Below, one piece after another: positions 1 through 59,448 of a stretch of DNA of 64,000 bases. How positions within the stretch are numbered: position 1 is the stretch's first letter; each line of letters starts with the position of its first letter. Origin of the DNA: an uncultured Chloroflexia bacterium (GTDB taxonomy: Bacteria > Chloroflexota > Limnocylindria > Limnocylindrales > CSP1-4); assembly GCA_963763775.1 (NCBI GenBank), contig CAVXPZ010000004.1:224001-288000 (forward strand). The letters run 5' to 3'. A model generated the notes under the pieces. It saw only the letters and a list, made by a program, of their open reading frames with translations. It had not been told where the DNA came from and did not search any database. A program made the translations under genes and the position numbers.

Positions 1-394
1 AGTACGGCAGCAGCTCGAAGTAGTCGATCGGCCAGTCGTCGGCGATGCCGTCGAGCGAGCGGACGCGGAAGTCGGAGGGGAGGGCGCGCGGCCAGGCGCC
101 CGCGAAGATGATCGTGGAGCCGCCGACCGCGTTGTACATGAGCGGCGAGACCGGGGTGTCGTCCTCGACGATCGGGTAGTCCGCCGCGAGGCCGCGCAGG
201 TTCGGGCTGGTCGCCCAGTCCTTGCGGGCCTTGAGCTCCCAGTCGAGCTTGTTCCCCGGGTAGTCCGCCCGGTCGAGCCAGTCGCCCTGCTCCAGGCACA
301 CCACCGAGAACCCGGCTTCGGCCAGCCGCAAGGCCACGACCCCGCCGGACGCGCCGGCGCCGATGATCAGGACATCTGCTGGTTCGGTGGCCAA
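1..394 (-). CDS. GMC-family FAD oxidoreductase, N-terminal part (runs off window)
   Basis: Manual translation from TTG at 394 with GGAGG RBS: MATEPADVLIIGAGASGGVVALRLAEAGFSVVCLEQG...NAVGGSTIIFAGAWPR; GxGxxG FAD motif and GGST motif. Confidence 0.85.
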   Translation of the reverse strand, partial: MATEPADVLIIGAGASGGVVALRLAEAGFSVVCLEQGDWLDRADYPGNKLDWELKARKDWATSPNLRGLAADYPIVEDDTPVSPLMYNAVGGSTIIFAGAWPRALPSDFRVRSLDGIADDWPIDYFELLPY

Positions 395-447
395 GACTGC
401 CTCCTTCGGCGACGACGGATGCGACCTCGGATCTCGGGACTGGCGGG

Positions 448-1390
448 TCAGGTGCGGGCCGCGGCGCCGGCGATCGGCTCGCGGAGGAGCCCGACCTCGG
501 CGAGGACCGACGCGAGGAACGCGCGCTCGTCGTCGGAGACCGGCAGCAGCGGGCGGCGGACATGGGCGTTCTCGAGGACCGCCGAGGATCCGCAGGCATT
601 CCTTCAGCCGGACGCGGTAGTCGCCGACCGGCGCGGCGAAGACGACGTCGGCGAGTCGCTGCACGCGACGGCCGAGCGCCAGGGCCTCGTCGGTCCGGCC
701 GGCCTGCCAGGCCGCGATCATGTCGACCTGCTCGCGGGTCATCACCGCCCCGAACCCGATGAGGGCGCCGGTCGCGCCGAGCAGGAACGACTCGAGGATG
801 AAGTTGTCGTTGCCGGTCAGGAGCGTGATCCGTCGCGGCAGGTGCTCGAGGAGCCGGGCCGTGTCCACGAACCGGCGGGCGTCGAAGGACGCTTCCTTGA
901 TCGCCACCACGCCATCCACGGCGGCCATCGCCTCGAGCGTGTCCTGCTCGTAGTTGACGCCGGCCAGGGCGGGCTGGAGCTGGAACAGGATCAGCGGCAG
1001 GCCGACGTCGGCGATCGCCTCGTGGTACGCGACGGGGACGCGCGGGTCGAGCGGCTGGCTCAGGTAGGCCGGGATCGGGAAGACGAGCAGGGCATCGGCG
1101 CCGGCGGCCTTGAAGTCCCTGGCCTGACGCACCGCGGCGTCGGTCGACGGCCCGGCGAGCCCGGCGACGATCGGCAGGTCCGTGACGTCGTCGACGATGC
1201 GCAGGATGCGGACCTTCTCGTCGTGCGTGAGGTGCGGGCCCTCCCCCGTGTCGACGTTGATCGCCAGCGCGACCGGGCCCTGCTGGACGACCCAGTCGAT
1301 GTAGGCGCGGAGGGCCGGCTCGTCGATCTGGCCGTCAGCGTCCATCGGCAGCACGGTGGCGGGGATCAGGCCGTCGAGGTTCAGCACCAT
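448..1390 (-). CDS. Dihydrodipicolinate synthase/N-acetylneuraminate lyase family protein (frameshift near 580)
   Basis: Manual translation MVLNLDGLIPATVLPMDADGQIDEPALRAY...DTGEG...VVAIKEAS...LLTGNDNF; C-terminal VRRPLLPV in a shifted frame ending at TGA 448. Confidence 0.85.
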
Positions 1391-1501
1391 CTCTCACTCC
1401 GGTCGCGGGTCGGGCGGGAAGTAATCGTTTGCTATCGTACGCCGCCGGCCGGTGGCGCCGCCTGTCGTGCCACGCGTCTGGCACGACGCGCGCCGATACG
1501 C

Positions 1502-1512
1502 TCGATAATCGA
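1502..1512. promoter_or_regulatory. Palindrome TCGAT-N-ATCGA, candidate operator of the cluster GntR
   Basis: TCGATAATCGA in the divergent DHDPS/SDR intergenic region; same palindrome at 11577-11587. Confidence 0.45.
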
Positions 1513-1533
1513 TCAGATGCAGCGAGGAGCCCG

Positions 1534-2321
1534 ATGAGCCAGCTCGACGTCTTCAGCCTGGCCGGCAAGGTCGCCCTGATCCCGGGCGGCGGCGGCGGCA
1601 TCGGATCGGCGCTGGCGGAGGCGCTCGCCGGCGCCGGGGCCCGAGTGGCCGTGGCCGGGCGCAACCTCGAGAACGGCCAGGCGGCCGTCGCGCGCATCGT
1701 GGCCGCGGGCTCCGAGGGCCTGGCGATCGGCGCCGACGCGACCGAGGAGGCGGACTGCGACCGGATGGTCGCGGAGACGCTCGCGCGGTTCGGTCGCATC
1801 GACATCGTCGTGAATGCCGTGGGCGGCGGCGCGGGCAAGGTCCTGCATCCCGCGGAGGCCTACCCGCGGGCCGATTGGGACTGGATCATGGAACTCAACG
1901 TCCGGAGCACGGTGCTCCCGACCCAGGCCGCGGTCCGGGCGATGATCGAGGCCGGCCATGGCGGCGTCGTGCTGAATATCTCGTCCGTGCGGGCCAACCT
2001 CGGGATCAACGCCGGCTATTCGGCGTATGTCGCCGCGAAAGGGCGCGATCAGCTCGCTGACGCGGCAGTGGGCGACCGAGTGGGCGAAGCACGGCATCCG
2101 CGTCAACGCGATCATGCCGACCTTCGTGGACACGCCGCAGGTCGCGATGCTGCTCGAGGACCCGGCGTTCAAGGCCGGCATCGTGAACCGGATCCCGCTC
2201 GGCCCGGGTCGGCGAGACCCGCGATCTGGTCGGGCCGGCGATCTTCTTCTGCTCCGACGCGACGTCGTTCGTGACCGGCCAGGTCCTCGGGATCGACGGC
2301 GGTCTCACCGCCACGCAGTAG
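1534..2321 (+). CDS. SDR family NAD(P)-dependent oxidoreductase (frameshifts near 2043 and 2200)
   Basis: PGGGGGIG, NAVG, YVAAK, then WAKHGIRVNAIMP and TGQVLGIDGG in shifted frames; GAGGAG RBS. Confidence 0.85.
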
Positions 2322-2350
2322 CCCGCCCCACCTCGAGGAGGACCGTCCCG

Positions 2351-3256
2351 ATGGCGACCGCGCCCGATATGCTCGGACTCGAGCGGGTCACGTCGAACGT
2401 CTACACGACCACGACGCTGCGGGGCTGCAACCCGAGCTTCGTCGTGACGTCGGCCGGGGTGGTCTGCATCGACACGCCGCAGCTGCCGACCAAGGCGGTC
2501 GCGATGCGGCAGGCCGCGGAGTCGCATGGGCCGATCCGCTACCTCATCAACACCGAGAACCACGTCGACCACATCTTCGGGAACCACTGGTACCGCGGCA
2601 TCGGCGACGTCGTGATGCACCAGGCGCTCTACGACATCTTCATGGACCAGACCGCCGCGCTCGACCCGTTCGCCTACGCGCTCGAGGCCATCCCGACCGA
2701 CGATCCCGAGGGCGCGGCGATCCTGCCCGACCGGGACGCCTACTACGCCGATCTGCCGCGCGGGACCGTCGTCTTCACGGGCGACCTGACACTCCGCGTG
2801 GGCTCGCACACGATCCGCTGCCTGTGGACGCCCGGTCACACGCCGGGCCAGCTGGCCGTGCACGTCCCCGAGGAGCGCGTGGTCTTCACGGGCGACACCA
2901 TCTTCTCGGGCTGCCAGACCTGGCTGATGACCTCGAACGTGGACCAGTGGCTCGAGGCTTTGGAACGCATCCGCGCCCTCGAGGACGTCGACCACGTCGT
3001 CCCCGGCCACGGGCCCGTGGTCGATCTCAAGTACGTCGAGACCCAGCGCTCCGTGCTGATGACCTGGAAGGCCGCCGTCTCCGATGCCGTCGCGAAGGGC
3101 TTCTCGCGGGAGGAGACGATCGCGAGCGTCCGGTTCGACGACGCCTTCGGGCCGGTCGACGTCGGGCAGGGCTACATGATGGATCACATCCAGAACAACA
3201 ACGCCGGCTCGCTCTGGGACAAGCTGACCGCGACGAACTACTCGAAGGGCCGCTGA
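2351..3256 (+). CDS. MBL-fold metallo-hydrolase (cyclase-like)
   Basis: TENHVDHIFGN (variant HxHxDH), TPGHTPG, FTGD, VVPGHG; GAGGAGG RBS. Confidence 0.88.
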   Translation: MATAPDMLGLERVTSNVYTTTTLRGCNPSFVVTSAGVVCIDTPQLPTKAVAMRQAAESHGPIRYLINTENHVDHIFGNHWYRGIGDVVMHQALYDIFMDQTAALDPFAYALEAIPTDDPEGAAILPDRDAYYADLPRGTVVFTGDLTLRVGSHTIRCLWTPGHTPGQLAVHVPEERVVFTGDTIFSGCQTWLMTSNVDQWLEALERIRALEDVDHVVPGHGPVVDLKYVETQRSVLMTWKAAVSDAVAKGFSREETIASVRFDDAFGPVDVGQGYMMDHIQNNNAGSLWDKLTATNYSKGR

Positions 3257-3294
3257 CGGCGTCGCGGCGCGGTCGCTGTCGCGGGCGCCGGCGC

Positions 3295-5447
3295 TCAGGC
3301 GCGGCCGGCTTCGACCTCGTCGGCGCGGGTCCGGCCGGCGAGCCGGATCAGGTCCTCGTGGAGCTCGAACCAGATCCCGTGATAGCTGTCGACGCGGGGC
3401 GAGGCGACGAACCGTCCGTCGCCAGCCTGCGCCCCCGCCAGCGCGCGCGCCAGTCGAGCCCGGTAGTCCGCCAGACGATGCGGGCCGGCCGTGGCGGCAT
3501 CGAACCAGGTCGCGGCGTCGGCGTCGATCGGCCGCCAGTCGCTCGAGGACGGCCGCGTCGTAGTCGGGGTCCGTGTGGTCGTTGACGACGCCGGCCGTCG
3601 GCGTCGCGGAGCTGCCAGGCCGTGACGACGTCCTTGACCCGATGGTCGAGCGCCAGGAAGGCGTCCAGCGCGGCCGCGGCGGACGCCGGGCCCCACGCGG
3701 CCCGGTCGGCGTCGAGGAGCGCTGCGGCCCGCGCCGTCCCGACGTCGGTGAGCTTGAGCGCGCCGGCCGAGCTCGCGACGAGCCCGTCGATGGCGAGCTG
3801 ATCGAGGACGGGCTCGACCATCGCCGGTTCGGCGAGGACGGCCTCGGCGATCCCGGGAAGCATGGCGAAGCCCTTGATCGCGATCACGCGCAGGCACCGA
3901 TCCGGCGTCACCTTCCGAGCGGCGACTGGCTCGGCGACGGCCGTGGCGGCGACGGCTCCCGGGGCGTCGGCGCGGGCTGGCGCCGGCTCGATCTCGATGC
4001 CGAGCTCCTCGGCCCAGCCGAGGAGCGTCCGCGCCTCGGGGACGACCTCCTCGGTCGTCGGGATGGCGCCCTCGAAGACCTCGCCGGTGCTGCCGTCGAT
4101 CGTGATGACCTCGCCCGTTCGCAGGGTCCGGTCGCCGATGACGACCTCGCCCTCGCGGACGACGAGATCGGCCGCGCCGACGACCGCGGGGATCCCCCAG
4201 CCGCGCGCCACGACCGCGGCATGGCTCGCGAGTCCGCCGCGCGACGTCAGGACCCCGGCCGCGCGGGCCATCCCGTGGACATCGTCGGGCGACGTCTCGG
4301 CACGCACGAGGATGGCCGGTCGGCCGTCGTCGGCGGCGGCCACGGCGGCTTCGGGGTCCGTGACGATCGGGCCGCTCGCCATCCCCGGCGAGGCCGGCAA
4401 CCCCGTCACCAGCGGCAGCAGGAAGCTGCTCCGGACGCTGGCGGTGGTCGGCGGATCCGCGAGCAGCGGGCGGACACGCTCGACGGCCTCGCGGCGCGAC
4501 AACGGGAATCCCGCGTCATCCGCCATGTCGACAGCGATCCGGAGGGCCGCCTGCGGGCTGCGCTTGCCGACTCGCGTCTGGAGCATCCAGAGCCGCCCGT
4601 CCTCGATGGTGAATTCGATGTCGCAGAGGTCGGCGTAGTGGCGTTCGAGCTCGTCGGCATAGCGGCGCAGGTCCGCGGCGACCGCGGGGAGCCGGGTGTC
4701 GAGGATGTCGATCGGCTCGGTCTGATGCGTCCCGGCGACGACGTCCTCCCCCTGGGCGTCGAACATGACGTCCCCGTACAGGCGGGGCTCACCGGTCGCG
4801 GGGTTGCGCGTGAAGACGACCCCGGTCGCCGACGTGGACCCGCGGTTCCCGAAGACCATCGCCTGGACCGTGACCGCTGTCCCCAGGTCGTCGGCGATCC
4901 CCTCCTTCGCGCGGTAGGCGACGGCGCGATCGCTCCGCCACGACCGGAACACGGCTTCGATCGCGAGGCGCAGCTGTTGCCACGGGTCGGCGGGCACGTC
5001 CGGCACGCCGACGATCGACCGGAATCCCGTTTCGAACCGCTCGCGGCACGCCTGGGCGAACGCGGCGTCACCCGAGGCCCGGGCGAGTCCGGCCGTCGTG
5101 GCCTCGTTCAGGCCGAGGTCCAGGATCGTGTCCATCATGCCCGGCATCGAGACCGGCGCGCCCGAGCGGACGCTGACGAGCAGCGGGTCCGCCGGATCGC
5201 CGAAGCGACGCCCCACGGCGGTCTCCACGTCGCGCATCCGGGCGTGGACCTCCTCGTCCAGACCGGCCGGCCAGCCCTCGGCCAGGTACGTCCGGCACGC
5301 CGCGGTGGAGATGACGAACCCGGGCGGCACGGGCAGCCCGAGGTCGCGCGACATGACGCCCAGGTTCGCCGCCTTGCCGCCGACGAGCGCCTTCGCGTCG
5401 TCGAGCGTGCCAGGGTGGGCGGCGTCGAGCGGGTACGCCCAGGTCAC
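3295..5447 (-). CDS. Pyruvate phosphate dikinase-like protein (ATP-grasp + phospho-His domains) lacking the pyruvate-binding barrel, fused to a C-terminal helical domain (frameshifts ~3530-3600)
   Basis: VGGKAANL, LPVPPGF, LVSVRSGAPVSMPGMMDT, QAMVFGN, FTRNPATG, AQGEDVVAG, DIEFTIE, LQTRVGKR, RGGLASHAAVVARGWG; tail ends DSYHGIWFELHEDL; GTG overlaps upstream stop. Confidence 0.85.
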
Positions 5448-7690
5448 CGGCCCGCCGCCTCGCGGAGCGCGCGCCACACCCGTTCCGGGGTCAGCGGCAG
5501 GTCGCGGATCACCACCCCGGTCGCGTCGGCGACCGCTGCGGCCACGGCCGGCGCGACGCACAGCAGCGCCCCCTCGCTCATCCCCTTCGAGCCATACGGC
5601 CCCGGGCCGTCCTCGTTCTCGATCACGTCGCTCTCGATCCGGTGCGGCAGGTCCAGGCTCGTCGGGATCTTGTAGTCGATGGCCCCGAGGTTGCGGATCC
5701 GGCCCTCATCGTCGTAGAGGTACTGCTCCATCAGCGTGTGGCCGAGACCCATGACCGCGGCGCCCTCGTCCTGGCCCCGGACCTGGATCGGGTTGAGGGC
5801 CTTCCCGACATCCGAGACGGTCACGTGGCGGACGATCGTGATGTCGCCGGTCTCGCGGTCCACCTCGACCTCGATGGCCGTGCAGTTGAACTCGAAGAAC
5901 GCCGCGGTCCCGCCGAGCGGGTGGTCCGGCTCCGCTTCCTTGCGCATCTCGCCGATGCCGATGACCTCGCCACCCAGCCGACCAAGGCCGCGGATCAGGA
6001 CGTCGCGGATCGGCAGGACCCGCTCGCCGATCCGGACCTCGCCGCGCTCGACGACCACGGCCGACTCGTCGACCGACTCGAGGCGCGCGGCCATCGTCCG
6101 GAGCTTCGCCTGGACCGCCCGGCAGGCATCCAGCACGGCGTTGCCCATCAGGACCGACGAGCGGCTCGCCGACGTCTGCTGGTCGTACGGGACGACGGCC
6201 GTGTCGCCCATGACGACCGTGACCCAGTCGACCGGGGCGCCGAGCTCCTCGGCCGCGATCTGGGCGAGGATCGTCCGGGCACCCTGACCCATGTCGGACG
6301 TGCCGGCGAACACCACGACGCTGCCGTCGGCGAGCAGGCGGACCGTGGAGTACGACAGGCCGGTCGTCGGGCCGGACTTGAGGCCGACGGCGATCCCGCG
6401 ACCCCGGCCTGGCGCCGGCGGGGTCCCCCAGCCGATCATCTCGGCCGCACGGTCGACCGTTCGTGCCCAGTCCCCGTCGGCCGGCGTGTCTCCCGGGATG
6501 AACGCATCGCCCCGACGCGCGAGGTTCTGCCGCCGGAGCGCGAGCGGGTCGATGCCGAGGACTCGCGCCGCCTCGTCCATGTTCGACTCGACGGCCCAGA
6601 TCTGCTGTGGATTGCCGAAGCCGCGGAACGCGGTCGACGGGGTCGTGTGCGACAGGATGCTCCGGGCGAGGATCCGCATCGCGGGGACCCGGTACGGCCC
6701 GGACGAGGTGTAACTGCCCTTGCCGACCGTCCGGTCCGCGATGTCCGCATAGGCGCCGATCAGGTAGTTCGCCTCGACGTCGCGGAACACGATCGTGCCG
6801 TCGCGGCGGAAGCCCGTGCGGACGCGGACCGCCGAGGCGCCGCGACGCACGGCCTGGAACGTCTCCTCCAGGGTCAGGATGAGTCGGACCGGCCGGCCCG
6901 CGCGCAGCGCCATGAACGCCACGAGCGGCTCGTACTTCGCGTGCTGCTTGCCGCCGAACCCGCCACCCGGGTCGGGCGCGAAGATGCGCACCTTGGCCAG
7001 CGGCAGGTGGAGCAGGCCGGCGATGACTCGCTGCAGCCAGTTCGGATGCTGGATCGAGCTCCACACCGCGATCCCGTCGCCGTCGGGCGCGGCGATGAAC
7101 CCGTGCGGCTCGATGGCGAACTGCGTGACCATCGGGAACGTGTAGGTGCCCTCGACGACCACCTCCGCGACCGCCGCGTCCACGTCGCCCCAGCCGTAGT
7201 GATGCTCGCGCAGGACGTTGGTGCCGTTGAGCGGGTCGCCCGGCCGGATCGCGGGGTCCTGGACGAGCGGCGCGGCCGGGTCCAGCGCATCGGCGATCGT
7301 GAAGACCGCGGGCAGCGCCTCGTACTCGACCCGGACCAGCCGGGCCGCCTCCTCGGCGGCATCGAGGGTGTCCGCCGCGACCGCGGCGACCGGCTCGCCG
7401 TGGTAGCGGGTCTCCCCCACCGCGAGCACCGGCCGGTCCTGGAACTGCGGTCCGAACCGCGGCATCGGGTCGGGCAGGTCGGCGGCGGTCATGACCAGCC
7501 GGACACCGGGCACCGCCAGGGCCGCGCTGGTGTCGATCGCGATGATGCGGGCGCGTGCGACGTCGACGCTCACGAGCTTCGCGTGGAGCGCGCCTTCGAC
7601 GCGCAGGTCCGCCACGTAGGCCTGGCGGCCGGTGACCCGGTCGAGTCCGCCGACGCGGGCGGGCGACGTCCCGATGCCGGTCTCGTTCAC
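5444..7690 (-). CDS. Xanthine dehydrogenase family molybdopterin-binding large subunit
   Basis: GGGFGGK, AFRGFG, DMGQG, SASRS, GPYGSKGMSE, DLPLTPERV. Confidence 0.93.
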   Translation of the reverse strand: MNETGIGTSPARVGGLDRVTGRQAYVADLRVEGALHAKLVSVDVARARIIAIDTSAALAVPGVRLVMTAADLPDPMPRFGPQFQDRPVLAVGETRYHGEPVAAVAADTLDAAEEAARLVRVEYEALPAVFTIADALDPAAPLVQDPAIRPGDPLNGTNVLREHHYGWGDVDAAVAEVVVEGTYTFPMVTQFAIEPHGFIAAPDGDGIAVWSSIQHPNWLQRVIAGLLHLPLAKVRIFAPDPGGGFGGKQHAKYEPLVAFMALRAGRPVRLILTLEETFQAVRRGASAVRVRTGFRRDGTIVFRDVEANYLIGAYADIADRTVGKGSYTSSGPYRVPAMRILARSILSHTTPSTAFRGFGNPQQIWAVESNMDEAARVLGIDPLALRRQNLARRGDAFIPGDTPADGDWARTVDRAAEMIGWGTPPAPGRGRGIAVGLKSGPTTGLSYSTVRLLADGSVVVFAGTSDMGQGARTILAQIAAEELGAPVDWVTVVMGDTAVVPYDQQTSASRSSVLMGNAVLDACRAVQAKLRTMAARLESVDESAVVVERGEVRIGERVLPIRDVLIRGLGRLGGEVIGIGEMRKEAEPDHPLGGTAAFFEFNCTAIEVEVDRETGDITIVRHVTVSDVGKALNPIQVRGQDEGAAVMGLGHTLMEQYLYDDEGRIRNLGAIDYKIPTSLDLPHRIESDVIENEDGPGPYGSKGMSEGALLCVAPAVAAAVADATGVVIRDLPLTPERVWRALREAAGR

Positions 7691-8163
7691 GATCCGCCGG
7701 CCTCGGCCGCCGCCAGCACGGCCTCGATGATCTGCTCGTACCCGGCGCACCGGCAGAGGTTCCCGGCGAGCCCGTCCTCGACGGCCGCCCGGGTCGGGTG
7801 CGGGTCGATCGCGAGCAGGGCCTTGGCGGCCAGCAGCTGCCCGGGGATGCAGAACCCGCACTGGGCCGCACCGGTCTCGAGGAACGCCGTCTGGAGCGGG
7901 TGGAGCCGGTCGCCCGAGGCGAGGCCCTCGACCGTGGTGACCGCCGTGCCGTCGGCCTCCACCGCGAACATCAGGCAGGCGTCCACGCTCACGTCGTCGA
8001 CGAGGACGGTGCACGCGCCGCACTCCCCGACGAGGCAACAGGCCTTCGTCCCGCTGAGACCGAGGTCGTCCCGGAGCACCTCGAGGAGCGTGTGATGCGT
8101 GGCCACCTCCGCGGTCCGCGCGCGCCCGTTCACTGACAGCTCGATCCGCCGGGTCTCGGGCAT
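7687..8163 (-). CDS. Molybdenum hydroxylase small subunit, 2x[2Fe-2S]
   Basis: GTKACCLVGECGACTV, QCGFCIPG, GNLCRCAGY. Confidence 0.93.
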   Translation of the reverse strand: MPETRRIELSVNGRARTAEVATHHTLLEVLRDDLGLSGTKACCLVGECGACTVLVDDVSVDACLMFAVEADGTAVTTVEGLASGDRLHPLQTAFLETGAAQCGFCIPGQLLAAKALLAIDPHPTRAAVEDGLAGNLCRCAGYEQIIEAVLAAAEAGGS

Positions 8164-9033
8164 CACGACACCGCCTGGCCGGACAGCCGCTCGATCGCGG
8201 TGCCGATGGCCCGAAGCCCGAGGACGTGCAACATCGCGAGGCGGTACTCGGGGCTGGCGCGCATCGATCCCGGCGACGGGCTGGCGTCGACGAAGAGCTC
8301 CTCGAGCCGCGTCAGCTTCGCGCCGTCCGGCGCCGATGGATCCGCGAGCACCCCGGTGTCGTCGACGACGAGCAGCGGTCGAGGCCCGAGGCTGCCGTAC
8401 GCGATCCGCGTCGAGCCCGTCGCACTGACGGCACAGGTCAAGGTCACAGACGCGAGGTCGTGGCCACGGCGACGGGTGCGGCGCACGTGGACCGACGCGG
8501 CTGGCCCGTCCGGACGCGGCAGCTCGATCGCCGTGACCAACTCGCCGGGTTCGAGCGTCGTCACGCCGGACCGGACGAAGAAGCCGTCGATGGCGATCCG
8601 TCGCTCGCCGCTCGGGCCGGCCAGCGACGACCACGGCGCTGTCCACGAGGAGCGCCGGCGCGGTGTCCGCGGCCGGGGAGGCGTTGCAGACATTCCCGGC
8701 GAGCGTCGCGCGGTTCCGGATCTGGGCCGACCCGACGACCGAGGCCGCCTCGGCCAGGGCAAGGTGATCGCGGCGGATCCGCTCGTCGGCCGCGATGTCG
8801 GTCATGACGGTCCGTGCCCCGACGCGCAAGACCCCGTCCGCCTCGCGGATCCCCGCGTCGAGCTCGGCGATGCGCTTGACGTCGACGACGACCCGCGGCT
8901 GGATCGACCCGTCCCGCAGCCGGATGATGAGGTCCGTGCCGCCGGCGAGCAGTCGCGCGTCGTCACCGTGCTCGGCGAGCAGGCCCACGGCATCGGCGAG
9001 CCGGGTCGGCCGTTCGTAGGCGAAGGGTCGCAT
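8163..9033 (-). CDS. Molybdenum hydroxylase medium subunit, FAD-binding (frameshift near 8625)
   Basis: MRPFAYERP, LAGGTDL, QIRNRATLAGNVCNASPAAD; C-terminal half in ORF 8163..8762 (MRASPEYR). Confidence 0.9.
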
Positions 9034-9042
9034 CGTCCGGCC

Positions 9043-9717
9043 CTAGATGGCCCGGTCGACGTCGTCGAGCCAGCGGCGAGCCATGTTCTCGCTGACCTCC
9101 TCGAAGTGGCGCTGGAGCGCGTCCACCACGGCGGCCGCGTCGCGACGTTCGATCGCGGCCTGGATCGGGCCGTGGAGGTCGGCCGACCACGTCGGGTCCG
9201 CCCCGGGGACGACGAGCGTGATGTAGGTCCGCGAGAACGGCTCGAGCGACCGCCAGACGCGGAGCAGGGCGCCGTTGTCGGCCAGCTCCACGATCCGCCC
9301 GTGGAACCGGGCGTCGGCCTCGGCGACGGCATGGCCGTCATCGACTCGGGCGGCGGCGCGCATGGCCTCGAGATGGCCCGCGAGTTCGGCGATATCCGCA
9401 TCGGTCAGCCGGGGCACCGCCAGTCGGGCGCCGAGCGCTTCGAGCGAGGAGCGCACCGCGTACGCCTCGATGATCTCGCGCCGCGACGGGTGGCGGACGC
9501 GTGCCCCGCGGAAGGGCGTGATCTCGACGACGCCCAGCGCCTCGAGGCCGCGTAGGGCCTCGCGGACCGGCGCCTGGCTCGTCCCGAGCTCACGGGCCAC
9601 CTGGGTCTCGATGATCCGGGCGTCGGGCGGGTAGTGCCCGCTGAGGATGCCCTCCAGGATCCGGTCCTTCACCTGATCGGCCAGGACGCTCCTCGGGATG
9701 ATCCGCCCGGTGGCCAT
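9043..9717 (-). CDS. GntR family (FCD domain) transcriptional regulator
   Basis: wHTH ELGTSQAPVREAL...GARV; FCD DARFHGRIV. Confidence 0.92.
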   Translation of the reverse strand: MATGRIIPRSVLADQVKDRILEGILSGHYPPDARIIETQVARELGTSQAPVREALRGLEALGVVEITPFRGARVRHPSRREIIEAYAVRSSLEALGARLAVPRLTDADIAELAGHLEAMRAAARVDDGHAVAEADARFHGRIVELADNGALLRVWRSLEPFSRTYITLVVPGADPTWSADLHGPIQAAIERRDAAAVVDALQRHFEEVSENMARRWLDDVDRAI

Positions 9718-9729
9718 CGACACGGCCGC

Positions 9730-11515
9730 TCAGCGTCCGATCGCGGACGTCGGCGAGCCGGCGGGTCGAGCGGACTCGTCGCGGATGATCTCGACGCGCC
9801 CGGCAGTCCCGTCGAGCCGGAGACGGTCCCCGGTCACGATCCGCTGCGTCGCGACCGACGTGCCGATGACCGCGGGGATCCCGAACTCGCGGGCGAGGAC
9901 AGCCGGGTGCGAGGTGGTACCGCCGGTATCGGTGACGAGTCCGGCGATCTTCGTGAAGAGCACGACCCACGCCGGGTTCGTCATCTGGCAGACGAGGATG
10001 TCTCCCTCGCGGACGTCGTCGAACTCGTCGACGGTCCGCACGACCCGCGCGATCCCCTCGACCGTGCCCGCGGACCCGCCGATCCCGGTGATGACCCGCT
10101 GGTCCTCGGATTGCCGCTGGTAGAACCGGTCCGGATACCCCCAGTTCACGAGATACGGGAACGCGAGCTGCGAGGACGTCACGGTGCCCACCCAGTCGCG
10201 CGGGTGCAGCCGTTGGGCCGCCTCGCGCTCCTCGCGGCGCGCGGCGACGATCCCGCGGGCGTCGATCGCGGTCGGGCTCCCGATGAGGGCTCGCAGCTCG
10301 TTGTAGCGGAGGAACATCACGTCGTCGGGCTGGTCGAGCACGTCCGGCCGCGACCAGTTTGTCGCCGACGGTCAGCAGCACCAGGCGCAGGTGCGCGTTG
10401 GCCCCTTGGTCGATGTAGAAGTGATGATCCGGGGTCAGCGGCGCCATCCGGAGGTTGACCTCGTTGGCGGCCCGCATCTCGTCGAGGGCCGTGCCGGACA
10501 GGCCCTCGAGGATCTCCCGTGACGCCGCCTCGATGTCGAGCCGCATCGCCTCGATCGCGCTCGGGTAGTCGTAGTCCGAGACGAGATAGCCGCGGACGAG
10601 CTCGAGGATCGGCTCCATCTGTTCGCGGGCGGTCGGGAAGATGAACTCGTGGCTCCAGACGGCGTGCCAGCCGAACTCGCGCTGGTAGGGCTCGATCCGC
10701 TCGGTGATGAACCGCTGGCCGCGGGCGCTCGCCCGGAGCGACCCGGCGATCCTGTCGACGTCGTCGGGGGCGAACGCCGCGCGGAGCTCCGGGTCGTCGC
10801 CGACCTCGTCCTTCATCCGCCACAGGGCCTCGATCGAGTCCCAGTTGCGATCCGACGCCGAGTTCTGGAGTCGCCCCAGCAAGGCCTCGTCCACCGAGCC
10901 GCGGGTCTTCTCCATGACCGCACGCAGGTTCAATGTCGCCGAGAGCTGCGCGAAGTTGAGCATCCAGTGGATCTTCCAGTGGCGGTCGTGGACGTCGATG
11001 GCGTCCTCCAGGAGGCACGCGGCGTCGGCCAGGTCCATCTCGTCGGCGGCGTCGAGGCGGGCTTCGAGGAACGCGAAGTTGCGCTCCATCTCGGGCCGCA
11101 GCCGGTCGCGCCACCAGTCGGCGAAGTCGCGGCCGTACACCGGGAGCACGGCGTCGAGATAGGCGCCCATCGTGGTCGCGAACGCCGCGTCGCGCGGCAC
11201 GCGCGCCACATAACTGGCGCTGTACTCGGTGCCCTCGATGCGGAGTCCCGGGTCCGCCGGGATGGCCGTCGTGTACACATAGCCGTTGACGTTCTTGGCC
11301 AGCCAGTCCACCGCGAACGGCGTCCCGAAGCGCCGGAACATGTGGTCGCAGCTGAGCCACCAGCCGCCGATGTCGAAGAACATGGGGCTGACGGGATGCG
11401 GGATGTGCAGGTCGTCGTAGACCCAGAAGAAGTCCTTCTCGGCATCGGACGCCCACGTCACCGGGAACGTCGCGTCCCCCAGGAACTGGCCGAGGATCTC
11501 CTCTGTCGCTGCCAC
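9730..11515 (-). CDS. PEP-utilising enzyme: helical substrate domain + C-terminal phospho-His swivel domain, no ATP-grasp (frameshift near 10345)
   Basis: C-terminal GSAGTVEG...GDILVCQMTNPAW...VTDTGGTTSHPAVLAREFGIPAVIG; PDDVMFL junction; GGAGG RBS before GTG at 11515. Confidence 0.82.
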
Positions 11516-11575
11516 GGGCCGACCCTCCAAGGTGCCACGGGGTTCGGGTTCCACGGACGTCACGTCCGGCGAGTC

Positions 11576-11588
11576 ATCGATCATCGAT
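11576..11588. promoter_or_regulatory. Palindrome ATCGAT-C-ATCGAT, candidate GntR operator
   Basis: In the divergent region between the PEP-utiliser and transaldolase, next to a TATGAT -10-like hexamer; matches 1502-1512. Confidence 0.45.
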
Positions 11589-11626
11589 TATGATAGCCGC
11601 GTCGCGGCGGCGCTCCACGAGGAGGC

Positions 11627-12751
11627 ATGGTGCTCGCTCCAGCCGAGGAAGACCTGATCGACTGCCCGATGCTTCGGACCGTCGTCGATCGCCCGACGGA
11701 CTACTGGAACGACTCGTGCTCGGTCGAGGAGCTCCGCTACGCGGTCGCCCGCGGCGCGACCGGGGCGACGTCGAACCCCAGCATCGTCCTCGAGGTCCTG
11801 CGCAAGGAGCACGCACATTGGGCCGCCCGGATCGCCGAGATGGCGGCCGCCGATCCCGCCTCGACCGAGGTCGACCTCACCTGGGCCGTGATCGAGGAGA
11901 TGGCCGTGCGCGGCGCCGCCGTGCTGGAGCCCGTCTTCGTCCGCGAGGACGGCCGCAAGGGCCGGCTTTCGCTCCAGACCGATCCGGCGAACTACCCGGA
12001 CACCGAGCGGATGCTCCAGCAGGGGCGGCGGTTCGCCACCCTCGCACCGAACATGCAGGTGAAGTTCCCGGCGACGCGGGCCGGGATCGCCGCGATCGAG
12101 GCGGCCACCGCGGCCGGCGTGAACATCAATGCCACGGTGTGCTTCACCGTCCCGCAGGCGATCGCGGTCGCCGAGGCGGTGGAGCGCGGGCTCGATGCGC
12201 TGGCCGCGAACGGCAGCGCGGGCGAGGCCGGCGTGGACGCGACCGCCCTGACGCCCGTGTGCACGATCATGGTCGGGCGTCTCGACGACTGGATGCGCGC
12301 CGTGGCCGAGCGGGACGGGATCGCCGTGCACCCCGACGCCCTGGACTGGGCCGGGATCGCCGCGTTCAAGCGCGCGTACGGGATCTTCCGTGAGCGCGGG
12401 TATCGCACGAGGCTCCTCGCGGCCGCCTACCGGCATCGTCTGCATTGGACCGAGTTCGTCGGCGGGGACGTCGTCCTGACGATGCCGCACGCCTGGCAGG
12501 AGCGGTTCAACGCCAGCGGCATCACACCAGAGGACCGGATGGACGCGCCGGTCGATCCGGGACTCGTCACCGAGTTGCTGGAGCGGATCCCGGACTTCGG
12601 CCGAGCCTATGAGCCGGACGGGATGGCGATCGCCGAGTTCGATGGCTACGGCGCCACGGTGCGGACGCTCCGCGGGTTCATCGGGTCGTATCACGAATTG
12701 GTCGGCGCGGTCCGCGACATCGTGCTGCCCGATCCCGACAAGCGGCGCTGA
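11627..12751 (+). CDS. Transaldolase family protein
   Basis: YWNDS, GATSNP, GRLSLQTDP, QVKFPAT (Schiff-base Lys), INATVCF, MVGRLDD; GAGGAGG RBS. Confidence 0.88.
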   Translation: MVLAPAEEDLIDCPMLRTVVDRPTDYWNDSCSVEELRYAVARGATGATSNPSIVLEVLRKEHAHWAARIAEMAAADPASTEVDLTWAVIEEMAVRGAAVLEPVFVREDGRKGRLSLQTDPANYPDTERMLQQGRRFATLAPNMQVKFPATRAGIAAIEAATAAGVNINATVCFTVPQAIAVAEAVERGLDALAANGSAGEAGVDATALTPVCTIMVGRLDDWMRAVAERDGIAVHPDALDWAGIAAFKRAYGIFRERGYRTRLLAAAYRHRLHWTEFVGGDVVLTMPHAWQERFNASGITPEDRMDAPVDPGLVTELLERIPDFGRAYEPDGMAIAEFDGYGATVRTLRGFIGSYHELVGAVRDIVLPDPDKRR

Positions 12752-12758: not shown

Positions 12759-13557
12759 TCAGTCCGTCGGGCGGCCGGTCTCCGCCCCGGCGATCGTGCG
12801 AGCCACGCGCCGGGCGTGCTCCCGGTAGGCCGCCTCGAACAGCTCCGCCGAACGCGCCGCCCCGACCACCGCGGCGCTCGTCAACACCGGCGGCAGCTTC
12901 CCTTCGGCCTGGAGCAGCGCCGCGGTCTGGACCTTGATCTCGTTCACGATCGCCGCGTTCGCGACCGTCGATCCCGGACCGATCGGCGTGTCGAGCCCGT
13001 CGAGGCGCACGAGCGCATCCCCAGCCGGCGTGCACAGGTCGATCACGATGTCCGCGTGGTCGAGAAGCCTCGTCCCCGTCGGATGATCAGGGGGCCGCGC
13101 CATCGACTGCGCCACCGACGTCACGGCGACGACCGGCAGACCGCGAGCCTTCGCCCCCATGGCCATCTCGATCGGGACCGCGGTCAGCCCGGACGCAGAG
13201 AACACGATCATCACGTCGGCCGGGGCGAACTGGAAGTTGGCGAGGATCGCCTCCGCGAGGCCGCTCGTCCGCTCGATGAACATCGCCTGACGCTGCCCGT
13301 TGGAGCCGGCCACTTGCGTGTGGAAGGTCATCGAGAGCTCGGCGATCGGGTGGAACCCCGGGTACGAGCCGTAGCGCGGGAACATCTCCTCGAGCGGGAT
13401 GCGCGAGTGCCCGGTCCCGAAGAGGTGCACGAGGCCGTCCTGCGGCGATCGCCCGCGCGGCCAGCTCGGCGGTCCGCGCGATGGCCGGCATCTGGGTCGA
13501 CTCGATCCGGTCGAGGACGGCGCGGGCCTCGGTCAACCACGCTCCGGCGATCGACAC
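12759..13557 (-). CDS. SIS domain sugar isomerase-like protein (frameshift near 13440)
   Basis: HLFGTGHS, FSASG, VVAVTS, ADIVIDL, GPGSTV. Confidence 0.85.
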
Positions 13558-13596
13558 GCGTCCCTCCCCTGCTGGCCGTGGCCCGGCGCGCGAAGC

Positions 13597-13609
13597 TGTC
13601 TAGACAACT
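13597..13609. promoter_or_regulatory. HutC/DasR-type GntR operator TGTCTAGACA(ACT), copy 1
   Basis: Perfect 10-bp palindrome in the SIS/GntR divergent region; identical 13-mer at 16290. Confidence 0.65.
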
Positions 13610-13643
13610 CTGCCATCCTAGGCGCGCCATCATGACACCGTCA

Positions 13644-14372
13644 ATGTCGACCGACCCGACGCCCCGCTACCAGGAGATCGCCGACTACCTGCGGCGGTTG
13701 ATCTCGGCGTCCCGGCCCGGCGACCGGCTGCCGTCCGAAGCGGAGCTGTGCGAGCGATTCGGCGTGAGCCGCATGACCGTCCGCCAGGCGCTGCAGGTCC
13801 TGGCCAACGAGCACCTGCTGGTCCGCCGCCGCGGCGAGGGGACCTTCGCCGCGCCGCGCGTCGTGGCGCGACTGCTCGGATCGCCGCTCTCGTTCACCGA
13901 GAGCATGCGTCGGCGCGGCCTCCGCGCCTCGTCGAAGATGCTGCACGCGGGCTGGATCGAGCCGAGCGTCGAGGACCGCGCGGCCCTGCATCTGCCCGTC
14001 GGCAGTCGGGCGATCGTCGTCGAGCGGCTGCGACTGGCCGACGACCAGCCGATGGCGATCGAGCGGGTCGTCTCGCCGCCGACCTGCGCCGGCATCCTCG
14101 ATGACGATCTCGAGGGCGGGTCCCTGCACGACGCCTTCGAGCGGCTCGGCCGGATCCCCACCCGGGCGCAGGCTCGCGTCTCGGCGCGCCGGGCGACGGA
14201 CATCGAGCGCCGGCTGCTCGGCCTCGATCCGGACGGCGTCGTGCTGAGCGAGAAGCGCACGATCGACGACCAGGACGGGATCCCGATCGAGCGCACCGAG
14301 ACCCTGTACGCCGCCGAGCGCTACGAGTTCGAGGCGGTCCTCCAGCGCGGCACGGACGCCGAGGTCTCCTGA
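13644..14372 (+). CDS. GntR family (HutC/UTRA) transcriptional regulator
   Basis: PGDRLPSEAELCERFGVSRMTVRQAL, GEGTF, SFTESMRRRG and UTRA-like C-terminus. Confidence 0.92.
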   Translation: MSTDPTPRYQEIADYLRRLISASRPGDRLPSEAELCERFGVSRMTVRQALQVLANEHLLVRRRGEGTFAAPRVVARLLGSPLSFTESMRRRGLRASSKMLHAGWIEPSVEDRAALHLPVGSRAIVVERLRLADDQPMAIERVVSPPTCAGILDDDLEGGSLHDAFERLGRIPTRAQARVSARRATDIERRLLGLDPDGVVLSEKRTIDDQDGIPIERTETLYAAERYEFEAVLQRGTDAEVS

Positions 14373-14374
14373 CC

Positions 14375-15280
14375 GTGACGCGGCATCTCGGCCTGGATCT
14401 CGGCGGCACGAACATCAAGGTCGCGGTCCTCGAGCGCGAGGCCGACCAGCAGGCGCCGCGCCAGGTGGCCGGCTCGTCCGTGAAGACCCATGCGGAGCGC
14501 GGTCCCGACGGCGTGGCCGCGGCGATCGTCGACGCGGGACTCGCGGCGATCGACGCCCACGGGCCGATCGCCACGATCGGGGTGGGGATCCCCGGCCTGT
14601 TCGACCGTGCGACGGGCCAGATCACCCTCTTCCCGAACTTCCCTGGGCCGTGGACGGGCTACCCGCTCCGCGACCGGCTGACCGACGGCCTCGGGATGCC
14701 GGTGACGTTCATCAACGACGCCCGGGCGCACACGCTCGCGGAGGCGCGGATGGGTGCCGGGCTCGGCGTGTCGACGATCGCGATGCTGACGCTCGGGACG
14801 GGGATCGGCGGCGGCCTCGTCATCGACGGGAAGCTGCACCTCGGCGCCACCGGGACCGGCGGCGAGATCGGGCATCAGACCGTCCATGACGGCGGGCGGC
14901 AGTGCGGCTGCGGCAATCGCGGCTGCGCCGAACCCTATGCGCAGGCCGGGGCGTTGATGGCGGCGGCGGGGCGCACCTCCGTCGAGGCCGTGTTCGAAGG
15001 GGCGGCGGCCGGCGACGAACGATGCCAGGCGGCGATCGACACCGCCGTCGATGCGCTCGGGATCGCGATCGGCAACATCGTCACGGTGCTCGTCCCGGAT
15101 CGTGTCGTCATCGGCGGCGGCATCTCCGAGGCGGGCGAGCGGATCATGGCCCCGTTGCGGGCCGCGGTGGCACGTCGCACGCCGTTCGTGCCGGCCGGCG
15201 GGCTGGACCTGCGGCTCGCCGAACTCGGACCCGGCGCCGGGGCGATCGGGGCCGCGCTCGCGGGGGCCGAGGCGAGCTAG
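14375..15280 (+). CDS. ROK family sugar kinase
   Basis: GLDLGGTNIK, GIPG, NDARA, LGTGIGGG, EIGH, CGCGNRGC.E. Confidence 0.92.
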   Translation: MTRHLGLDLGGTNIKVAVLEREADQQAPRQVAGSSVKTHAERGPDGVAAAIVDAGLAAIDAHGPIATIGVGIPGLFDRATGQITLFPNFPGPWTGYPLRDRLTDGLGMPVTFINDARAHTLAEARMGAGLGVSTIAMLTLGTGIGGGLVIDGKLHLGATGTGGEIGHQTVHDGGRQCGCGNRGCAEPYAQAGALMAAAGRTSVEAVFEGAAAGDERCQAAIDTAVDALGIAIGNIVTVLVPDRVVIGGGISEAGERIMAPLRAAVARRTPFVPAGGLDLRLAELGPGAGAIGAALAGAEAS

Positions 15281-15319
15281 CAACCTCGCGGGCGCCGCGG
15301 CGCGCCGGCTCGCCCGTCC

Positions 15320-15493
15320 GGCCCTTAGTCACCGGGCGACTGCTATTCCCGGCCCGGGCCGTCGCTGCGCCGGCAGCCGCGCCCTTCCGGTGCCTTCCAT
15401 GCAGCGTGATGCATCGGAGGCGCCGATCCAGCGGCAAGAGAAGCCCCAGTGACGCCCGGTCCCGGCGTAGCAGTCAGGTAGTGACTAGGCGCC
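15320..15493 (+). ncRNA. Rod-shaped structured RNA, 6S RNA-like
   Basis: Nested pairings CTTAGTCAC/GTGACTAGG, GACTGCTA/TAGCAGTC, CCGGGC/GCCCGG, GTCGCTG/CAGTGAC, central bubble, GCCGC/GCGGC, CGGTGCCTTC/GGAGGCGCCG, ATGC/GCAT; four G-U pairs favour + strand; ~174 nt between convergent genes. Confidence 0.55.
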
Positions 15494-15539
15494 ACAGATC
15501 GAGCGGACTCGCCCCGGGCCGGCCCACCCTCCACCGACC

Positions 15540-16259: not shown

Positions 16260-16289
16260 GGTGCCCATGATGCCAGCCTTGACCAGAGA

Positions 16290-16302
16290 TGTCTAGACAA
16301 CT
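16290..16302. promoter_or_regulatory. GntR operator TGTCTAGACA(ACT), copy 2, upstream of deoC
   Basis: Identical to 13597-13609. Confidence 0.65.
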
Positions 16303-16312
16303 TCCCGCTCAG

Positions 16313-17137: not shown

Positions 17138-17176
17138 GGCCCATGTCTACCACACGGCGGCCGGCATCGCCCGCCG

Positions 17177-58774: not shown

Positions 58775-59030
58775 GCTCGGTCCCCTTCCCCGTTCCGCGG
58801 CGCGCGCTCTGGGCGCGCTCGTCGAGCCATCGTAAGGGGGCACGAAGGATGCTGCCGCCATCGCCCGGCGCGACGGTCGACGGCTACGGCAGACTGACGC
58901 CATGACCGAAGTGGACGCGACCGCGGAGCCGTTCCCGCTGCGCGACCGCGGCCGGTCCGGACGCCAGCGCGGCCTGCGCCGCTTCGACGACCCGGCCGGC
59001 GCCTGACCCAAGTCACCAAGGAGGGCTTCG

Positions 59031-59384: not shown

Positions 59385-59448
59385 GTCGAGCTGGGCCGCC
59401 GCGCACGGGACGCGCGACACGAGCCGCGCGAGCCGCCAAGATACGGGC

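Follow-up and report, generated by a model that had tools for sequence, protein, structure and literature searches.

The pairing of a molybdenum (Mo) hydroxylase with dikinase-type phosphotransferase proteins has one published genetic precedent, in the breakdown of 3-hydroxypyridine (3HP), where the chemistry is unexplained. HpdA1-4 of the Ensifer adhaerens HP1 3hpd cluster converts 3HP to 2,5-dihydroxypyridine only together with orf9, annotated as 'pyruvate-phosphate dikinase' (PPDK), and orf10, a 'PEP-utilizing protein mobile subunit' (PEP, phosphoenolpyruvate), orf7 encodes a GntR regulator, and knock-out of either orf9 or orf10 abolishes growth on 3HP; similar clusters are described as widespread, with variable gene order, from Actinobacteria, Rubrobacteria, Thermoleophilia and Proteobacteria (bioRxiv 10.1101/2020.01.08.898148). 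We have analysed a locus with the same core in 64,000 nucleotides of DNA from an uncultured soil Chloroflexia bacterium (contig CAVXPZ010000004.1, positions 224,001 to 288,000), referred to as the window, in which a three-subunit Mo hydroxylase, a GntR-family regulator, a PPDK-like protein and a PEP-utiliser are encoded side by side. An earlier note on this DNA knew of no characterised pathway with this gene set; that statement was wrong, as 3hpd has the same core and requires both of its dikinase genes.

Homologous two-component phenol dikinases, which are homologues of rifampin phosphotransferase (RPH), are described from Rhodococcus rhodochrous GD02 (HpeHI), Corynebacterium glutamicum (CreHI) and Thauera aromatica (PpsAB). 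In these systems phosphorylation of the phenolic hydroxyl comes first, the phospho-ester is then handled by a carboxylase or P450, and the last step is that of a phosphatase (PMC12167813, PMC9618137). In a later literature search only the 2020 preprint links Mo hydroxylases with such dikinases, and journal or subscription papers may hold more; the sole experimental handle on a dikinase-dependent Mo hydroxylase is that one genetic study, in which the mechanism was left open.

We consider it highly probable that the locus in the window is a dikinase-coupled Mo-hydroxylase catabolic module of the 3hpd kind. The more specific reading, a GntR-controlled catabolic regulon that combines an XDH-family Mo hydroxylase with a small-molecule dikinase of the RPH/phenylphosphate-synthase type, is the one we favour on balance. 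Gene content, conservation, domain architecture, catalytic motifs and operator are reported as observed; what the earlier note saw in the sequence was confirmed, and its interpretation was supported in part.

Gene map and conservation of the operon

The source genome comprises 3.30 Mb in four contigs and is rated 87% complete. The window lies on contig 4 and has a G+C content of ~72%; names on close homologues of its proteins include 'Chloroflexi bacterium CSP1-4' and 'Candidatus Limnocylindrales'. Genes were mapped by Pfam and NCBIfam scans of long open reading frames (ORFs), a codon-position GC plot and tblastn with intact orthologues. All gene families named in the earlier note are present in the claimed order and orientation, and the minus-strand operon is as tightly coupled as described there, neighbours in the order PEP-utiliser, GntR/FCD, Mo-hydroxylase M, S and L, and PPDK-like being separated, or overlapping, by 10 nt or less. 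The features are as follows, with lengths of intact orthologues taken from the related locus L012.

2..394, minus strand: GMC-family FAD oxidoreductase, N-terminal part, running off the window start (FAD/GMC N-terminal matches in Pfam and NCBIfam)
~451..1390, minus strand: DHDPS/NAL-family class I aldolase or dehydratase (PF00701, E 1e-37; 313 amino acids in L012)
1505..1516: operator-like near-palindrome ATAATCGATCAG between the divergent DHDPS and SDR genes, 29 nt ahead of the SDR start
1534..~2321, plus strand: SDR-family dehydrogenase (PF00106 and PF13561 over two ORFs; 261 amino acids, intact, in L012)
~2357..3256, plus strand: metallo-beta-lactamase-fold (MBL) hydrolase, ~297 amino acids, intact (PF00753; 297 in L012)
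~3298..5447, minus strand: PPDK-like protein, a truncated PPDK (PPDK_N and PEP-utilizers, no PEP-utilizers_C; 708 amino acids in L012), its start overlapping the L stop codon
5444..7690, minus strand: Mo-hydroxylase L (molybdopterin subunit), 748 amino acids, intact (PF01315, PF02738, PF20256)
7687..~8166, minus strand: Mo-hydroxylase S ([2Fe-2S] subunit), intact (PF00111, PF01799)
8163..9033, minus strand: Mo-hydroxylase M (FAD subunit), frame-broken (PF00941)
9043..9723, minus strand: GntR-family regulator with FCD ligand domain, intact (PF00392, PF07729)
9730..~11545, minus strand: PEP-utiliser (PpsA/HpeH/RPH-like), ~600 amino acids, frame-broken (PF00391; 612 in L012)
11580..11591: operator-like near-palindrome ATCATCGATTAT in the interval that separates the PEP-utiliser from the divergent transaldolase
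11627..12751, plus strand: transaldolase-family gene (TAL; PF00923, E 8e-42), divergent from the operon and sharing the operator region with it

The core is conserved within the genus. In 11 genomes, 12 orthologous loci were compared; all 12 have M, S and L, and 11 each have the PEP-utiliser and PPDK-like genes, the missing PEP-utiliser coinciding with a contig end and the PPDK-like gene not being found in L014. SDR is present in 10 loci, MBL in nine, the DHDPS family in seven and a transaldolase of this type in six; gene order varies, with linkage kept. Outside the genus, species-representative genomes scanned with a 19-sequence alignment yielded 80 loci, which were then searched by local tblastn. 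A Mo L subunit lies within 10 kb of the PEP-utiliser in 16 of the 23 loci with at least 39% identity, compared with 2 of the 57 more distant ones. These 16 Mo-linked loci belong to Chloroflexota classes, Actinomycetota, Vicinamibacterales (Acidobacteriota) and Bacillota/Oscillospiraceae. Two further loci of the 23, one from Rhodobacteraceae, are short contigs ending in an M subunit; the rest are one 7.4-kb contig, one locus with an S-like match only and three loci from Anaerolineae/Caldilineae (L042-L044), whose PEP-utiliser homologues are 43% identical and have no Mo enzyme within their contigs. The earlier note had made its reading depend on such linkage, and both swivel/dikinase proteins do co-occur elsewhere with the Mo hydroxylase and often with the MBL. 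The same core is present on the megaplasmid of Thermomicrobium roseum DSM 5159 (NC_011961.1, 59-69 kb), where the PEP-utiliser is 48% and L 39% identical and an ATP-grasp-only partner, GntR, cyclase, FAH and ABM genes complete the set. T. roseum is thus a cultivable carrier of the core and a practical model. Limnocylindria-type Chloroflexota are common in soil metagenomes, and the dikinase/Mo-hydroxylase module is abundant there.

Pfam scans of nine loci and of the annotated T. roseum megaplasmid revealed variants around the core. The Actinomycetota/Thermomicrobium/Thermogemmatispora variant has an ATP-grasp-only partner with cyclase, FAH and ABM genes; the Bacillota variant has an ATP-grasp-only partner, a 298-amino-acid P-loop protein, an MBL 44-47% identical to that of the window and PHP or metallophosphoesterase genes; the Limnocylindria variant has the fused PPDK. 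Phosphoesterase-type genes differ between variants, being PHP in L028 and L040, metallophosphoesterase in L041 and His-phosphatase in L033. The 298-amino-acid protein, which belongs to no Pfam family and has a P-loop-like motif (GESNHGKS), is encoded between GntR and M (L012:14288-15184, minus strand). Of the loci searched, 18 proved to have it, some of them from Bacillota and Anaerolineae; it is absent between positions 9033 and 9043 of the window and tblastn gave no match to it in the genome assembly.

Some side observations concern these relatives. In T. roseum the core adjoins a Tm-1-like/UPF0261 and PEP-hydrolase-like pair and an ABC transporter. In an Oscillospiraceae metagenome-assembled genome (MAG), a PpsR-type kinase/pyrophosphorylase (PF03618; L041:4743-5654, plus strand) lies between the MBL and Mo L genes; proteins of this type regulate swivel-His enzymes.

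The two dikinase proteins and the hydroxylase

The PEP-utiliser ends in a swivel-His domain (PF00391, E 2e-26) that has the motif TDTGGTTSH in both the window copy and L012, which agrees with the T/SxxGGxxxH catalytic-His motif of H/PpsA-type components. Its N-terminal ~500 residues matched no Pfam family in the Pfam scan; a precomputed database column gives the more recent family PF27448. Residues 48-595 align to residues 41-602 of an HpeH-type protein from an Hpe-like cluster on a Rhizobium plasmid (25% identity, E 2e-39), so that the protein, with its putative N-terminal RIF-binding-like domain, is alignable over the full length by sequence. Residues 395-595 align to residues 681-866 of RPH (5fbs, E 1e-27), and the middle regions of RedH, PigC and PRK08296 also match. 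The analogy with phenylphosphate synthase and RPH drawn in the earlier note was therefore correct. Because it aligns end to end with the HpeH-type protein and with the C-terminal part of RPH, the PEP-utiliser is an H/PpsA-type component of RPH-like dikinases, but in a clade of its own. A single-sequence AlphaFold2 (AF2) model of the full protein was unusable, with a predicted local distance difference test score (pLDDT) of 38.9. A full-length search returned 4494 proteins at E <= 0.001 among 8000 candidates scored, the best 120 all being at least 83% identical. A match on a Variovorax plasmid proved to be a fragmented PEP-synthase-like locus and was set aside as uninformative. The PEP-utiliser ORF of a Vicinamibacterales MAG (L038:9509-11713, plus strand) begins with a SnoaL-like domain.

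The PPDK-like protein consists of an ATP-grasp, a swivel-His domain (GGLASH) and a fused ~200-residue winged-helix plus four-helix-bundle domain. The PPDK structure 1vbg matches it at E 9e-116 and aligns only to about residue 550 of the chain. The protein passes the cut-off of the short-PPDK model NF004531 (PRK05878) over residues 53-520 (501.2 vs 456 bits) and stays below that of TIGR01828 (529.8 vs 843 bits), and Pfam scans detected no PEP/pyruvate-binding TIM barrel (PF02896) in it. The swivel His of GGLASH is kept in five intact or partly intact orthologues, in the window copy and in a proteobacterial homologue. The genome also encodes a canonical PPDK in a 932-amino-acid frame on contig 1. 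Since three swivel domains and two PPDK_N domains were counted in the whole genome, one of each belonging to the canonical enzyme, the operon PPDK-like protein is the only dedicated ATP-grasp available to the PEP-utiliser in this genome. It is not an ATP-grasp-only protein of ~40 kDa, as are HpeI, CreI and PpsB; it has 708 residues with PPDK_N, PEP-utilizers and the extra domain. ATP-grasp-only partners are found in T. roseum, L033, L035, L038, L040 and L041, and the ATP-grasp partner of Mo-linked modules thus exists in two forms, one fused to a new domain. The 'two half-enzymes' of the earlier note was an inexact description: the dikinase modules are indeed divided between two proteins, but the PPDK-like protein has a swivel His of its own as well as the fused domain.

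The fused C-domain follows the swivel domain and ends in ...SPRVDSYHGIWFELHEDLI. We regard the fusion as real because enzyme and domain form one uninterrupted chain in many-contig MAGs and also in numerous metagenome proteins. An AF2 model from a 30-sequence alignment (pLDDT 90.2) matches MarR-type winged helices over residues 8-81 when compared with VIA-align (Z 11-12, root-mean-square deviation 1.1-1.5 Å, ~73 residues), and residues 83-206 form a four-helix bundle with generic matches only and with invariant His, Asp and Glu positions. Foldseek found no match of the model in the PDB at E <= 0.001, and Pfam and NCBIfam scans of the domain and three stand-alone homologues gave only sub-threshold winged-helix hints. 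On plasmids of Diaphorobacter, Mycobacterium and Streptomyces, homologues of the domain are stand-alone proteins of ~200 amino acids whose gene adjoins that of a short PPDK; Rhodococcus records contain similar two-piece matches, and the stand-alone gene is thus found in both Actinomycetota and Proteobacteria. In Diaphorobacter the PEP-utiliser, a 206-amino-acid protein and the short PPDK adjoin, the 206-residue protein being 36% identical to the fused domain (8e-28); in M. avium the short PPDK adjoins a 201-amino-acid protein, with the PEP-utiliser two genes away. Because the domain is a separate gene elsewhere and fused here, a three-gene set has become two genes in this lineage. A 205-amino-acid hypothetical protein beside the T. 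roseum ATP-grasp was considered as a further homologue and rejected, as it is not homologous and has a weak DUF4202 match. For a predicted complex of the PEP-utiliser with the fused C-domain the score was 0.04 against a mark of 0.32, which says nothing either way on binding. A His-to-His relay on the one hand, and docking or sensing on the other, are candidate roles for the second swivel His and the winged-helix/bundle module. In L019 (1114-6240, plus strand; the many-contig genome G019), L and the PPDK-like protein share one open frame of 1708 amino acids with no stop between them; a TTG near the junction (4095-4117) could still start the second protein, and the frame may represent either an L-PPDK fusion or a lost stop codon.

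The hydroxylase has the complete domain set of a three-subunit XDH/CODH-family enzyme, with a hammerhead and two MoCo-binding domains in L, two 2Fe-2S domains in S and FAD_binding_5 in M. The best PDB match of L is the alpha subunit of 4-hydroxybenzoyl-CoA reductase (1rm6, 6e-98), followed by quinoline oxidoreductase (1t3q, 2e-76). None of the substrate-specific NCBIfam equivalogs (XdhA, 4-HBCR, CODH, PaoC etc.) was reached, the best scores being 453 vs 995 and 451 vs 780. These scores point to no particular substrate, and the flanking genes are generic. In L, the glutamate of a C-terminal SEG motif, the presumed counterpart of the XDH catalytic Glu, aligns with GVGE in the T. roseum protein. 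L012 (1997-6214, plus strand), G016 and G017 also carry a second, paralogous M/S/L set of ~35% identity between the DHDPS-family gene and SDR; this set is not present in the window.

Operator, flanking genes and frame breaks

The palindrome ATAATCGAT / ATCGATTAT occurs in exactly two copies in the 64-kb window, at 1505-1513 (plus strand) and 11583-11591 (minus strand); the earlier note had reported the same palindrome in both divergent regions, and exact copies are found nowhere else in the window. With up to 2 mismatches allowed, the 12-bp operator ATAATCGATTAT has 65 matches in 37 sequences totalling 659 kb (the window and related loci), compared with a mean of 1.8 and a maximum of 5 in 20 mononucleotide shuffles. 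Most sites lie within ~100 nt of PEP-utiliser, SDR, TAL, GntR or MBL starts, nearly all of them upstream, and in several phyla. As the operator lies upstream of these starts and in the shared divergent regions, it ties SDR-MBL and, via those regions, TAL and DHDPS-GMC to the operon regulon. The GntR/FCD protein of the cluster is the candidate binder of the palindrome.

The flanking genes could be assigned at family level. For GMC, residues 1-131 of the L028 protein align at 77% identity (tblastn), and L011 shows a full GMC gene and an aldehyde dehydrogenase upstream of the window. MBL aligns in one frame to residues 6-295 of its orthologue at 77% identity, is a gene separate from SDR and has homologues in Bacillota clusters L040 and L041 (44-47% identity). 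TAL adjoins the PEP-utiliser in L014, L017, L018, L020, L022 and L023, and also in L025, L029, L030, L031 and L045. PDB searches with the DHDPS-family and MBL proteins gave generic family matches only. A pyridoxine-pathway reading of SDR, MBL and GMC (pyridoxal dehydrogenase, 4-pyridoxolactonase and pyridoxine oxidase) was rejected; MBL scores 24 bits against the 325-bit cut-off for 4-pyridoxolactonase, and no protein so labelled is among its PDB matches at E <= 0.001.

Further afield, the DNA upstream of the window (L011:1-14400) carries the rest of GMC, the aldehyde dehydrogenase, a luciferase-like monooxygenase, a shikimate-dehydrogenase-like gene, an FAH-family hydrolase, an amidohydrolase and a branched-chain-type ABC permease. 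A sugar-type cluster at window 12759-17146, syntenic in L017 and L021, consists of SIS (minus strand), GntR/UTRA (plus), ROK kinase (plus), DeoC-family aldolase (minus) and SDR (minus). Window 58394-63679 contains at least four glyoxalase/VOC-family ORFs on both strands, adjoining a 903-amino-acid FG-GAP repeat protein and an AraC-type regulator at the window end.

DNA alignment with the intact orthologues of L012 reveals seven uncompensated indels in the window copy. Single extra bases are present near 579 (DHDPS), 2037 and 2203 (SDR), 8624 (M) and 10340 (PEP-utiliser), and the PPDK-like gene has a +1 near 3528 and a -2 near 3590. As a consequence of these indels, false long ORFs join DHDPS to GMC, SDR to MBL and M to S, and the PEP-utiliser is split into two ORFs. 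The extra base near 579 puts the last ~40 DHDPS codons in another frame and falsely joins the ORF to GMC, SDR is spread over three frames and M over two (tblastn), and the extra base near 8624 joins the N-terminal half of M to S. In relatives, by comparison, the PEP-utiliser halves share one frame (eight relatives), M is one frame in L012, L014, L015, L016, L018, L019, L020 and L022, L015, L016, L019 and L020 have DHDPS and GMC in two separate frames, and S is a gene of its own. Because relatives have the genes intact, the apparent fusions and splits are probably assembly errors, and we judge that the seven breaks most probably represent consensus errors of the assembly and not gene decay.

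That the cluster in this genome is a set of decaying pseudogenes, with seven real frameshift mutations and a locus no longer functional, is rather unlikely, and it retains that much probability because the local density of indels is high: seven in ~11.5 kb exceed what is seen in six long housekeeping genes (~19.5 kb), of which only uvrA is broken, a comparison that also counts against a working module. The HprK-like P-loop gene of many relatives is, in addition, absent from this genome; however, versions of the locus without it exist as well (L015, L018, L019, L020, L021, L025 and L028). Neither in-frame stops nor large deletions accompany the shifts, the bias in G+C at third codon positions is kept after them, the shifted frame past each break is still 62-89% identical to the orthologue (tblastn), and L, S, GntR, MBL and TAL are intact. 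Breakage is also not confined to this locus. uvrA lies in three frames (G000:C1:356573-359434), rpoB, rpoC and two dnaE copies being each in one frame and all five other housekeeping genes whole; an adenosine deaminase is represented by an ORF for its C-terminal half only and looks split (window 35427-35966, plus strand), as does the upstream luciferase-like monooxygenase, which runs into the shikimate-dehydrogenase-like gene (L011:4684-6612, minus strand). Other few-contig genomes of the genus are similarly fragmented at the locus, L017 much more so. Two public soil runs sharing 6-7% of sampled words gave short contigs of relatives and no indel rows.

Order of reactions and relation to described systems

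From the observed genes we infer that the two dikinase proteins are partners, in what order the steps run and what the flanking genes do. In the proposed scheme the dikinase is split: the PPDK-like protein would supply the ATP-grasp, together with its own swivel His and the fused winged-helix/helical-bundle module, and ATP on the ATP-grasp would pyrophosphorylate a swivel His, with loss of the gamma phosphate. The PEP-utiliser would provide the substrate-binding domain and a swivel His, whose phosphate would be transferred to a substrate hydroxyl in the RIF-binding-like pocket. The substrate would be a (hetero)aromatic compound with a hydroxyl, phosphorylated at the expense of ATP; the Mo hydroxylase, or the surrounding pathway, would handle the phospho-ester and not the free compound, and a hydrolase would remove the phosphate later. 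SDR and MBL, DHDPS and GMC (with the aldehyde dehydrogenase) and transaldolase, which share the operator, may process side chains or ring-cleavage products. The opening of the ring by the MBL and the passage of products through SDR, GMC and aldolase steps, as envisaged in the earlier note, are purely speculative. Within this scheme, phosphorylation before hydroxylation is a tentative but best-supported choice, favoured over the reverse order because in Ensifer no product forms without the dikinase genes and the sole product forms with them. The order in the earlier note, hydroxylation followed by ATP-dependent activation, is probably reversed, given that HpdA alone is inactive on 3HP without orf9 and orf10 and the Cre, Hpe and Pps systems phosphorylate first. 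We further argue that the dikinase would act as a pathway step at substrate level and not in enzyme maturation, because 43%-identical homologues occur without a Mo enzyme and the phosphoesterase families differ across variants.

A wider generalisation is offered as a doubtful conjecture: Mo hydroxylases of at least four phyla might act on (hetero)aryl phosphate esters, the PPDK-derived swivel charging the second swivel His-to-His and the relay of Limnocylindria being docked or gated by the fused new-family module, with phosphate as a removable activating or trapping group and substituted 3-hydroxypyridines as one candidate substrate class. If true, phosphate as a removable group for hydroxylation would be a logic not yet shown for any Mo enzyme, and phosphate esters as the true substrates would amount to a new activation strategy for heteroaromatic catabolism and for Mo-enzyme chemistry. 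With a cross-phylum core and shared operator, a cultivable carrier, two partner forms and a single candidate partner, the need of a Mo hydroxylase for a dikinase becomes directly testable.

Several points weigh against the reading of the locus as a catabolic module of this kind. Likeness to 3hpd is one of gene content and annotation, orthology to Orf9, Orf10 and HpdA being presumptive at most, and no Ensifer record is among the plasmid matches listed (40 of 260 and 40 of 131). No SRPBCC/CoxG, NicX-type, isochorismatase or maleate-isomerase family was found among the ORFs scanned in 1-16 kb of the window and 14 kb upstream, and no dedicated phosphatase is recognisable within the window. By their families, the flanking transaldolase, DHDPS, SDR and GMC genes would suit the metabolism of sugars or sugar acids better than the breakdown of aromatics. 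At 25% identity to the HpeH-type protein, the sole comparator, the PEP-utiliser falls short of the ~45% pairwise identity given for characterised members of the phenolic clade in PMC12167813, and a two-component model does not account for the second swivel His, that of the PPDK-like protein. The Ensifer authors detected no phosphorylated intermediate and left the role of the dikinase open (bioRxiv 10.1101/2020.01.08.898148). Lastly, 9 of the 37 scanned sequences lack an operator match.

The reverse order of reactions, in which the Mo hydroxylase makes a lactam hydroxyl on an N-heterocycle, the dikinase phosphorylates it and the MBL opens or dephosphorylates the ring, has some merit, since RPH-type dikinases could act on the enol/lactam hydroxyls that Mo hydroxylases create, conservation of the MBL as a neighbour extends to Bacillota (at the identity given above) and co-occurrence of the core fits this order equally well. 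We nevertheless consider it unlikely: the Ensifer result is hard to reconcile with a dikinase acting after hydroxylation, and all characterised relatives (Hpe, Cre and Pps) phosphorylate first.

Less probable still, to the point of being quite unlikely, is that the swivel-His proteins have a role in regulation or maturation, in which they would phosphorylate, for instance, the hydroxylase, a cofactor or a regulator, with the winged helix as a DNA- or ligand-binding sensor. The match of C-domain residues 8-81 to MarR-type winged helices points in this direction, as do the annotation of stand-alone homologues as transcriptional regulators in some records, the PpsR-type protein of the Oscillospiraceae cluster and the failure to detect an intermediate in Ensifer. 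On the other hand, the remainder of the C-domain, the four-helix bundle with its invariant His, Asp and Glu, is no known regulator fold, the PEP-utiliser keeps the full RIF-binding-like small-molecule architecture of HpeH, its homologues in L042-L044 have no Mo enzyme on their contigs, and regulation is already explained by the dedicated GntR and its operator.

A non-phosphorylative Entner-Doudoroff-type route for sugars or sugar acids (SDR as sugar dehydrogenase, MBL as lactonase, the DHDPS-family protein as keto-deoxy-acid aldolase, the Mo enzyme as aldehyde oxidoreductase and the PPDK-like protein converting pyruvate to PEP) is highly improbable. On paper the families would suit it, L and S are matched, below the cut-offs, by the alpha and gamma models of glyceraldehyde dehydrogenase (1e-102 and 9e-50), transaldolase, SIS, ROK and DeoC genes lie nearby and L040 has transketolase-like genes. 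Against it, no dehydratase is seen, the PPDK-like protein lacks the PEP/pyruvate-binding domain while a canonical PPDK is encoded elsewhere, the best-scoring structures for L are those of 4-hydroxybenzoyl-CoA reductase and quinoline oxidoreductase, and the conserved core is a hydroxylase with an RPH-like dikinase which, outside the Limnocylindria-type class, is accompanied by genes characteristic of aromatic degradation (cyclase, FAH and ABM).

The catabolic module favoured here, a Mo hydroxylase paired with a small-molecule dikinase, resembles each of the described systems in part. Like 3hpd, it combines a multi-subunit XDH-family Mo hydroxylase with an adjoining GntR, a PPDK-annotated protein and a PEP-utiliser. 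Of the two, only 3hpd has the maleamate-pathway genes hpdBCDE and an SRPBCC subunit of its own (HpdA3), whereas the SDR, MBL, DHDPS-family, GMC and transaldolase flanks, the fused winged-helix/helical-bundle domain and the assignment to Chloroflexota are particular to the locus described here. With HpeHI, CreHI and PpsAB the PEP-utiliser shares a RIF-binding-like domain, a C-terminal T/SxxGGxxxH swivel, the lack of an ATP-grasp of its own, an ATP-grasp protein encoded alongside and a catabolic setting. The partner in those systems is a 40-kDa ATP-grasp-only protein, in contrast to the PPDK-derived ATP-grasp with swivel and extra domain found here, and, where the present locus has a Mo hydroxylase, they have a P450, a biotin carboxylase or a UbiD carboxylase acting downstream. 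RPH (5fbs, 5hv1) has the same three modules, ATP-grasp, substrate domain and swivel His, but in a single chain that serves antibiotic resistance, as against two proteins, a second swivel and a catabolic context. PPDK and short PPDK (NF004531) have an ATP-grasp and swivel close to those of the PPDK-like protein, in which the ~200-residue domain takes the place of the PEP/pyruvate TIM barrel of a true PPDK. Finally, 4-hydroxybenzoyl-CoA reductase (1rm6) and quinoline 2-oxidoreductase (1t3q) have the same three-subunit composition and domain set as the hydroxylase, the M-S-L order and the obligate dikinase neighbours being distinctive of the present locus. What is new relative to these systems is the fused, swivel-bearing ATP-grasp partner derived from PPDK, a module without SRPBCC or maleamate genes, the set of flanking genes and the phylum.

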